A stretch of DNA of 32,000 nt. It comes from a virus. Every line of letters begins with the position of its first letter. The stretch's first letter is position 1. The position numbers and the translations under genes are program-made. The notes below the pieces were generated by a model. It searched no databases and had not been told where the DNA came from. It worked only from the letters and a program-made list of their open reading frames with translations. Below are positions 31,757-32,000 of the stretch, in pieces. The DNA is taken from the IMG/VR virus record IMGVR_UViG_3300002461_001027, positions 1-32,000 of that record. One strand, written 5' to 3'.

Positions 31757-31837
31757 CCGAGCTTGAGGTGTGGGGTGCAGGCCACAGGGGAGAGGCGCCC
31801 CTTTCACGTGCGGGGTAGAGAGCGTACTGGGATAATT

Positions 31838-31992
31838 TGTCCAACCTGTCCAACTTGGAATACAAACCCACCATTCAGCTAGGCTCTCTAAGTATCTACT
31901 ATATATATAGGTTTGTCAGGTTGGACAAAAACGCCTAAGTAACTCTCTCTTCGCCCGTCACGTATAGAGAACCCGGTTGGACAAGTTGGACA
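31838..31992. repeat. AT-rich region with inverted sets of tandem 8-mers TGTCCAAC / GTTGGACA around a (TA)n core
   Basis: TGTCCAAC at 31838 and 31847 (9-bp period). GTTGGACA at 31920, 31976 and 31985 (9-bp period). CTATATATATAG at 31898..31909. TTTGTC..GACAAA dyad at 31912..31929. G+C is clearly lower than in the rest of the window. Confidence 0.7.
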
Positions 31993-32000
31993 TTTCTGCC

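Follow-up and report, generated by a model that had tools for sequence, protein, structure and literature searches.

The replication origins of staphylococcal pathogenicity islands (SaPIs) contain several 5-9-bp iterons, six to twelve in number, which flank an AT-rich centre with at least two copies per side in opposed orientation (PMC9371898). The iterons directly follow rep, and the self-loading helicase recognises them through a winged-helix domain in its C-terminal part (PMC9371898). The SaPI Rep and Pri-Rep proteins and Cch of the staphylococcal cassette chromosome mec (SCCmec) come from Ubeda et al. 2007, 2012 and Mir-Sanchis et al. 2016 (summary in PMC9371898). Here we analysed bases 1-32000 (hereafter the window) of the 103,895-bp virus record IMGVR_UViG_3300002461_001027 (67% G+C; hereafter G000), so that window and record coordinates are identical. 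At the right end of the window, region 31820-32030 carries short iterons in inverted sets around an AT-rich core. Judged from its sequence, this region is, on balance, a likely bidirectional replication origin of the iteron/AT-core/inverted-iteron kind used by self-loading initiator helicases. A preliminary description of the window had offered an origin, an attachment site and an operator region as readings of the repeats; the origin has become the best supported of them, the operator survives as a rival or a second function, and the attachment site is poorly supported.

The locus resembles the SaPI and Cch systems in its short iterons on both sides of an AT-rich centre (at least two per side, opposed), in the helicase family encoded by the element (DUF927, with matches to 5DGK and 8TCH) and in an iteron sequence that varies between related elements. 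However, it has only five exact and two degenerate iterons, an extra inverted GTATYCCA pair and two adjoining ribbon-helix-helix (RHH) genes, it lies 14.4 kb from the helicase gene and not directly downstream of it, and its host and virus type are unrelated to the staphylococcal islands. Phage P4 reportedly has ori and crr sites with octamer iterons (TGTTCACC) bound by its alpha primase-helicase. The P4 octamer agrees with that of G000 (TGTCCAAC) at 6 of 8 positions, both occur as direct and inverted copies, and both origins lie apart from the initiator gene. In contrast to P4, G000 shows no match to a DUF5906/D5-type or Toprim/Prim-Pol primase-helicase and has no second, crr-like array in its genome.

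Results

Architecture of the intergenic region

Five exact copies of TGTCCAAC occur in the window, against 0.52 expected, and none of 100 shuffles contained five or more. Together with one 7/8 and one 7/9 copy, they lie inside 173 bp (Table 1), with two iterons on the + strand followed by 2+2(+1) on the - strand, that is, at least two on each side in opposed orientation. The exact copies and their 9-bp tandem periods are as given in the preliminary description; the degenerate copy at 31911 additionally turns the inner right copy into a tandem pair. The outer right pair is 94% complementary to the left pair, and the spacer between these convergent 2+2 sets is 121 bp long with 43% G+C. These iterons are the sole non-coding 8-mer repeat cluster of the genome, the one other five-copy cluster being a coding acidic repeat.

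The sharp drop in G+C content previously placed near 31810 was also reproduced: G+C falls from ~0.70 to 0.40-0.48 past ~31800, and this is the sole 150-bp window below 50% G+C in the 103,895 bp. By nearest-neighbour energy, the genome has its least stable 60-bp stretch starting at 31884, in overlap with the AT-rich core (-71.3 kcal/mol; genome mean -97.5, standard deviation 4.5). This minimum lies 5.8 standard deviations off the mean, and the next weakest segment outside the region has -81.0. The AT-rich core is, from its sequence, a candidate unwinding element and may also contain a -10-like hexamer. A second motif, GTAT(C/T)CCA (GTATYCCA), occurs only twice in the whole record, at 31856 (-) and 32013 (+), forming an inverted pair. 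The array stops by ~32020, ahead of the gene at 32050. The earlier view that the window ends inside the array holds for a single 7/8 copy at 32003, and there is no long continuation.

Several smaller symmetries reported in the preliminary description are present, two of them shifted by one base. The palindrome CTATATATATAG occupies 31899-31910 rather than 31898..31909, and in the mirror-arranged pair CTCTCTAAGTA/TAAGTAACTCTCTCT the first element lies at 31884-31894 rather than 31885..31895, while the second lies at 31936-31950 as given. The TTTGTC-N6-GACAAA dyad was correctly placed at 31912-31929. TATAAT-like hexamers in the core and TATAGA at 31963 have iterons on both sides, and an early rightward promoter probably lies in the right half of the region as well. 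A sigma-70 consensus scan of the + strand found no promoter. At the site, an Rfam search found no RNA family, a tRNA/transfer-messenger RNA (tmRNA) search found neither, and the single-strand fold was not significant (z -1.75). Cultured phages gave no BLAST match to the region or to the surrounding 8 kb.

Table 1 Features of the divergent intergenic region and the adjoining genes
Feature	Position	Strand	Basis or remark
Left part of the divergent region	31388..31498		Outside the iteron array
TGTCAA (= TTGACA on -), likely leftward-promoter -35	31447-31452		Upstream of the first leftward gene
TGGGATA, weaker copy of the second motif	31828-31834
Left iteron pair, TGTCCAAC-C-TGTCCAAC	31838..31854	+	Exact copies 31838-31845 and 31847-31854 (sequence); 9-bp period; directed at the core
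AT-rich core	31855..31910		56 bp, 36% G+C; CTCTCTAAGTA at 31884-31894, (TA)5 at 31900-31909
Second motif, one arm of the inverted pair, TTGGAATAC on + = GTATTCCA on -	31856..31863	-
Inner right iteron pair, degenerate GTTTGTCAG, then exact GTTGGACA	31911..31927	-	Degenerate copy 31911-31919 (7/9); exact copy 31920-31927 (sequence)
Second spacer	31928..31975		CTAAGTA, (CT)4 tract, TATAGA (31963-31968); may include elements of a rightward promoter
Outer right iteron pair, GTTGGACA-A-GTTGGACA	31976..31992	-	Exact copies 31976-31983 and 31985-31992 (sequence); 9-bp period
7/8 iteron copy, GTTGGACG	32003-32010	-	Just past the window end
Second motif, partner arm, GTATCCCA	32013-32020	+	Beyond the window end
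176-residue TraY-like double RHH gene	32050..32580	+	Structure model, Foldseek
142-residue RHH-like gene	32593..33021	+	RHH sequence pattern

Since the first and last 94 bases of the record are identical (1-94 = 103802-103895; IMG/VR class 'direct terminal repeats'), G000 is circular or terminally redundant, a virus-like genome of ~103.8 kb from an uncultured bacterial virus. The matching terminal repeat that the preliminary description had suggested looking for therefore exists, but at position 1 and not at the site. The sequence past 32000 is more of the same element, which disposes of the concern that the repeats lie in flanking host DNA; because of the terminal repeat, the record was not captured with host flanks. 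The array occupies a gap of 293 bp (31757..32049; 52% G+C versus 67% in the genome) between an 85-residue open reading frame (31499..31756) and the rightward gene that follows, whose start at 32050 is preceded by a Shine-Dalgarno sequence.

In a crude gene map, nearly all genes run leftward from 31387 to 1, rightward from 31499 to ~87.7 kb, and leftward again beyond. On a circle, the site is thus the strand-divergence point opposite a convergence near 88 kb, with arms of ~47 and ~56 kb. Cumulative AT skew bottoms out at 31,776 and peaks at 89,022. Strand divergence and skew would suit an origin, but both are collinear with the direction of transcription and so do not count as independent evidence. 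The GC skew of G000 is weak and collinear with the gene strand, and was excluded as independent evidence. Elsewhere, the genome encodes a tyrosine integrase (84661..85962; PF00589, 3.5e-33) 53 kb from the site, which would suit a temperate element. A gene 46 kb from the site (77734..78906) has a weakly ParB-like product that scores under the Pfam cut-offs. The family-A DNA polymerase (59646-62450) has an N-terminal uracil-DNA-glycosylase-like domain.

Two further lone exact copies of TGTCCAAC lie at 88769-88776 and 94154-94161; ~1.7 per genome are expected by chance, and both are probably chance occurrences. The copy at 88769 reads CTGTCCAACCT and is near the strand-convergence point. We also considered DnaA boxes in the region. 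TTGTCCAAC agrees with the actinobacterial box TTGTCCACA at 7/9 positions, and TTATCCCAG with TTATCCACA at 7/9. The mismatched positions are ones that we take to be important for DnaA contacts, and these boxes were therefore not adopted.

Octamer arrays linked to helicase genes

At least 120 viral contigs contain TGTCCAAC-N-TGTCCAAC. With an array defined as at least four octamer copies in both orientations within 400 bp, 29 of the 120 viral contigs listed contain one, whereas a composition-matched shuffled octamer matched 91 contigs and gave no array (0/91). Scanning prokaryote genomes for a triple tandem added 14 arrays in prophages of Alpha-, Beta- and Gammaproteobacteria, cyanobacteria and others. 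Among these 43 loci (the 29 viral ones among the matches listed and the 14 from genomes, a scope that holds for the counts below), 32 have the array and the 3' end of a primase/helicase gene 6-290 bp apart: 18 of the DUF5906 type, 10 VapE, three Prim-Pol fusions and one DUF927. The other arrays lie just upstream of terminase genes or beside unknowns.

The common build comprises two to three head-to-tail copies with a 9-bp period, a spacer of 52-152 bp that is AT-rich or has long alternating purine/pyrimidine runs, and two to three inverted copies. G000, with its 2+2 copies, 121-bp spacer and (TA)5, lies within this build, and its orientation recurs in 19 of the 22 arrays that have two clear tandem sets. 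These arrays and that of Pseudomonas phage vB_Pae_U5 (TGTCCCAC) thus share with G000 an identical or near-identical octamer, the period, the convergent sets and the spacer length. They differ in adjoining the 3' end of a primase/helicase gene, in preceding packaging genes and in having no RHH homologue beside them. In tailed-phage loci the arrays stand between the replication and terminase modules, and in L042 and L071/L089/L111 just upstream of the terminase genes. For the tailed-phage and prophage arrays and that of vB_Pae_U5 we found no experimental characterisation in the searchable literature, where the tandem octamer string was not found except in primers.

Some properties of these loci are recorded as observations in their own right. 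Alternating purine/pyrimidine runs of 12-32 nt (e.g. GCGCGCACACGCG) occur in the spacers of L006, L014, L020, L051, L066, L117, L218 and others, and far exceed the 6-7 nt estimated for chance. In DUF5906-type loci, a phrog_9306 protein (~260-320 residues) always follows the array and precedes HNH/terminase genes, for example at L006:8372-9277, L041:5848-6822 and L125:3772-4548 (Rhizobium phage RR1-A). vB_Pae_U5 (L377) is a cultured, temperate phage whose like-built array has the iteron TGTCCCAC/TGTCCTAC and a GC-alternating centre; it lies 380-610 bp past the VapE primase gene and is unannotated in the record.

A DUF927 helicase without an adjacent array

G000 encodes one initiator-type helicase, a DUF927 protein of 607 residues (46421..48244, -). 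It matches PF06048 (3e-33), SCCmec Cch (5DGK, 2.8e-11), a 'pathogenicity island protein' (8TCH, 5e-7) and NCBIfam Cch1, and no match to DUF5906, DnaB, Prim-Pol or Toprim_3 was found in the genome. Among DUF927 genes from viral contigs, 33 of 35 have an iteron array after the stop codon, whichever gene comes next. These arrays begin 0-30 bp past the stop, span ~300 bp and comprise 7-12 iterons of 8-10 bp, in both orientations, whose sequence differs between phages (AGGTGTAACA, AGGAGTAACA, GTGGGAACA and others; TTGTCTAAC in L193). In L109 the iteron is TGTCCAAC itself; there the stop codon of a DUF927 helicase gene, whose product is 28.6% identical to that of G000, lies 11 bp from the array. The two exceptions are the nearest kin of G000 in that collection, and no iteron array follows the DUF927 gene of G000 itself or that of its relative L385. 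The genome therefore combines a Rep-type helicase gene that lacks a neighbouring origin with a single iteron/AT-core site.

A winged helix was predicted in the helicase solely by aligning the C-terminal 100 residues. Across 43 lineage helicases (46-77% identity), the segment after the putative recognition helix, the 'wing', alone is variable. Searching G000 with profile hidden Markov models built from the C-terminal domains of DUF5906 and VapE helicases gave no counterpart, and BLAST among the C-terminal domains of the helicase families gave nothing significant except between the two Prim-Pol types. Thus the C-terminal domains of the array-linked helicases are not detectably alike across families, despite the common octamer. 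The neighbouring SNF2 helicase gene (48330-50960) bears an intein with an HNH endonuclease in both G000 and L385, and the lineage DUF927 helicase P0012 (993 residues) is also intein-bearing.

Iteron turnover in syntenic contigs

A full HMMER search with the 176-residue protein encoded next to the array gave nine remote homologues, located on contigs syntenic with G000. Simpler searches did not reveal them: scans of viral contigs with each of the 176-, 426- and 195-residue neighbours gave no match, and a word-indexed protein search with the 176-residue neighbour returned only itself. The shared gene order is leftward genes, a gap of 300-600 bp, the 176-residue homologue, the 142-residue homologue, small genes and DUF192. 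The gaps (L379, L381/L386, L382/L383/L385, L387-L390) contain inverted iterons around an AT/(TA)n core, in which CTAAGTAYCTAYWATATA is conserved, and each also has a (CT)n tract, a TATA-like element and GTATYCCA. TGTCAA(T/C)AC just upstream of the first leftward gene is likewise kept in G000 and all relatives.

In eight syntenic relatives this architecture is kept and the iteron changed. From TGTCCAAC in G000 it becomes TGTCTCAC in L379, TG(C/T)ATAACA in L381, TGTGTTACG in L385, TGTTATACA in L389 and TGTGTATCA in L390; TGCATAACA is also among the relatives' iterons. GTATYCCA is kept in all relatives while the iterons change. In all five contigs tested, the least stable 60-bp window falls in the syntenic gap, to which the iterons are confined or nearly so. 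L385, the one long contig, has a DUF927 gene 63% identical to that of G000, divergent from the intein-bearing SNF2 gene just as in G000. Of 51 other viral contigs, 17 contain inverted arrays of the L379 iteron, TGTCTCAC. Iteron turnover is typical of initiator-origin pairs, and a constant place and build with a changing repeat would have the look of co-evolving protein-site pairs.

Proteins that may read the iterons

The preliminary description had proposed four proteins for binding tests (the products of 31499..31756, 30063..30398, 30800..31387 and 27294..29582), none of which matches a DNA-binding family in Pfam, PHROGs or NCBIfam; the small proteins encoded next to the array likewise matched no family in these collections. 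The product of 32050..32580 and the DUF927 helicase are better candidates for iteron binding. In G000 and eight relatives, two RHH genes lie directly beside the array. The model of the 176-residue protein, built with its nine homologues, has a predicted local distance difference test score (pLDDT) of 81 and two successive strand-helix-helix units. Its best Foldseek matches are F-plasmid relaxosome chains of 102-120 residues (probability 0.97-1.0, target template modelling (TM) score 0.53-0.68), which we take to be TraY, the classic single-chain double RHH protein. The 176-residue protein is thus modelled as a TraY-like single-chain double RHH fold; as a monomer, such a protein would recognise an asymmetric site of 8-9 bp.

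The first β-strand of this protein reads R-I-[G/T]-x-K in two genomes with TGTC..AC iterons and Q-x-G-x-R-L in six genomes with TGTTA/TGTAT/TGTGT iterons; this parallel is suggestive only, because it rests on one split on a small tree. RHH repressors that act on tandem short repeats are known, as MetJ on metboxes and omega on heptads. In its tandem 8-9-bp asymmetric sites and the modelled fold of the 176-residue protein, the locus also recalls TraY at the F-plasmid oriT, but no relaxase or transfer genes were seen in G000, identity to the TraY chains is 14-17%, and binding is predicted. The 142-residue protein has a conserved strand, (L/V)R(F/V)R(V/I)T, invariant in four relatives. A gene-start palindrome, GAGTCNNGACTC, occurs in 41 copies in the genome, one of them at 31501-31512, outside the iteron array; from sequence, the 142-residue protein is a candidate reader of this palindrome.

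The iterons could be read by the helicase C-terminal winged-helix domain, by analogy with SaPIs and with support from L109 and L193, or by the 176-residue RHH protein encoded beside the array. Both could also act, the small protein being a specificity factor and autoregulator of the early operon. No homologue of the G000 neighbour proteins, including both RHH families, was found beside any other TGTCCAAC, TGTCTCAC or DUF927 array, including the 43 TGTCCAAC loci. At those loci the octamer is therefore read by something else, presumably the helicases.

Discussion

We favour a replication origin because of the architecture of the region, its unique melting minimum, found in G000 and in every relative tested, and an octamer linked to helicase genes with a clean shuffled control. 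The orphan Rep-type helicase, the position at the strand-divergence point and the conserved synteny with iteron turnover argue for the same reading. In such an origin, sequence-specific proteins would cover both inverted sets of iterons, a pair of helicase hexamers would assemble head to head, and the (TA)5 core would melt, with forks leaving in both directions, co-oriented with transcription.

Several observations weigh against an origin. The strand divergence and the skew are confounded with the direction of transcription, and the iterons bracket TATA-like hexamers and hence a potential early promoter. The array is not immediately downstream of the rep-type gene, the distance of 14.4 kb in G000 being 9 kb in L385. 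Unlike what the SaPI and Cch systems would suggest, the putative recognition helix of the helicase (ERVWRDF..GWL) is invariant in the 43 lineage members even though the iteron changes. The two β-strand classes of the 176-residue protein parallel two iteron classes, a pattern that a repressor and its operator would explain no less well than an origin. Finally, the closest long relatives among viral contigs (G001, G002) stop short of the syntenic place.

These points bear most directly on the possibility that the region acts purely in early-gene control, with the iterons as operators for the 176-residue RHH protein, perhaps together with the 142-residue protein, in autoregulation or a lysis-lysogeny switch, and with no origin. 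The constant place of the two RHH genes beside the array, a modelled double fold that would suit asymmetric 8-9-bp sites, the β-strand that varies in step with the iteron class, the hexamers between iterons and an integrase gene, with which the element may be temperate, all speak for such control. We nevertheless consider it doubtful. The octamer and its build recur, among the matches listed, at 43 other loci without an RHH homologue, 32 of them adjoining helicase genes. The other promoter regions of the genome do not fall below 50% G+C, the recurring gene-start palindrome is a different motif, and the + strand gave no sigma-70 promoter in the consensus scan. Pure control would also leave the DUF927 helicase of the lineage without an iteron array anywhere in the genome. 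The origin and operator readings are not exclusive, because iterons can serve both initiation and autoregulation, as is common in plasmids, and an origin compounded with an early promoter is in our view the likeliest arrangement.

The remaining explanations are far less probable. RHH proteins beside tandem short repeats in both orientations are the layout of type Ib/II partition sites, where ParR, ParG and omega are RHH centromere binders. A centromere-like site of a plasmid-prophage, RHH-bound as in ParR/parC, ParG or omega, is still very unlikely here. No ParA/ParM/TubZ-type nucleoside triphosphatase was found by the RHH genes in Pfam and PHROG searches of ten downstream and nine upstream proteins, the weak ParB-like protein that might speak for partition is encoded 46 kb away and scores under the Pfam cut-offs, the element has an integrase, and kindred arrays elsewhere belong to tailed-phage replication modules. 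A packaging recognition (pac/cos-like) site is suggested by the tailed-phage arrays between replication and terminase modules, some just upstream of terminase, and by P1 pac, in which repeats lie on both sides of the cut site. We hold it to be more improbable still, with no recognisable terminase near the site in G000, DUF927-linked arrays that follow the helicase stop whatever gene comes next, and a terminal repeat at position 1 of the record, not at the array. Least credible, and in our judgement extremely improbable, is the phage attachment site (attP) with arm-type repeats around a crossover core. A tyrosine integrase and repeats around an AT-rich core would be expected of one, but the integrase gene is 53 kb away, no tRNA or tmRNA lies at the site, the record has a terminal repeat of its own, the position beside the RHH genes is kept in relatives while the repeats change, and octamer arrays elsewhere are internal to prophages and adjoin helicase genes.

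Within the favoured origin, a more specific division of labour appears unlikely: the fast-evolving TraY-like RHH protein would read the lineage-specific iterons and autoregulate the early operon, and the DUF927 helicase, with its gene uncoupled from the origin and its putative recognition helix invariant in the lineage, would dock on the invariant GTATYCCA pair or on the RHH protein. By analogy, in papillomavirus E1/E2 a hexameric initiator helicase is aided onto an AT-rich origin by a separate DNA-binding transcription regulator, although there is no homology, and the two-reader model for G000 draws on conservation patterns only.

For widespread, uncultured, large virus-like elements, of whose helicase at least 43 homologues (46-77% identity) are present in public metagenomes, the analysis names a candidate origin that can be tested and two proteins that may bind it. 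The candidate origin may help to build replicons, to infer replication states from coverage in metagenomes and to locate the boundary between early and late genes. TGTC..AC octamers recur behind at least six primase/helicase families and may help to annotate phage origins. The rule that iterons come right after the helicase gene, which holds for 33 of 35 DUF927 genes, can be broken, and in that case the candidate origin has a small double RHH protein beside it instead, which raises the question of who confers origin specificity. If the two-reader arrangement is true, it would be a bacterial-virus counterpart of papillomavirus E2/E1 in widespread, undescribed, large non-tailed viruses.

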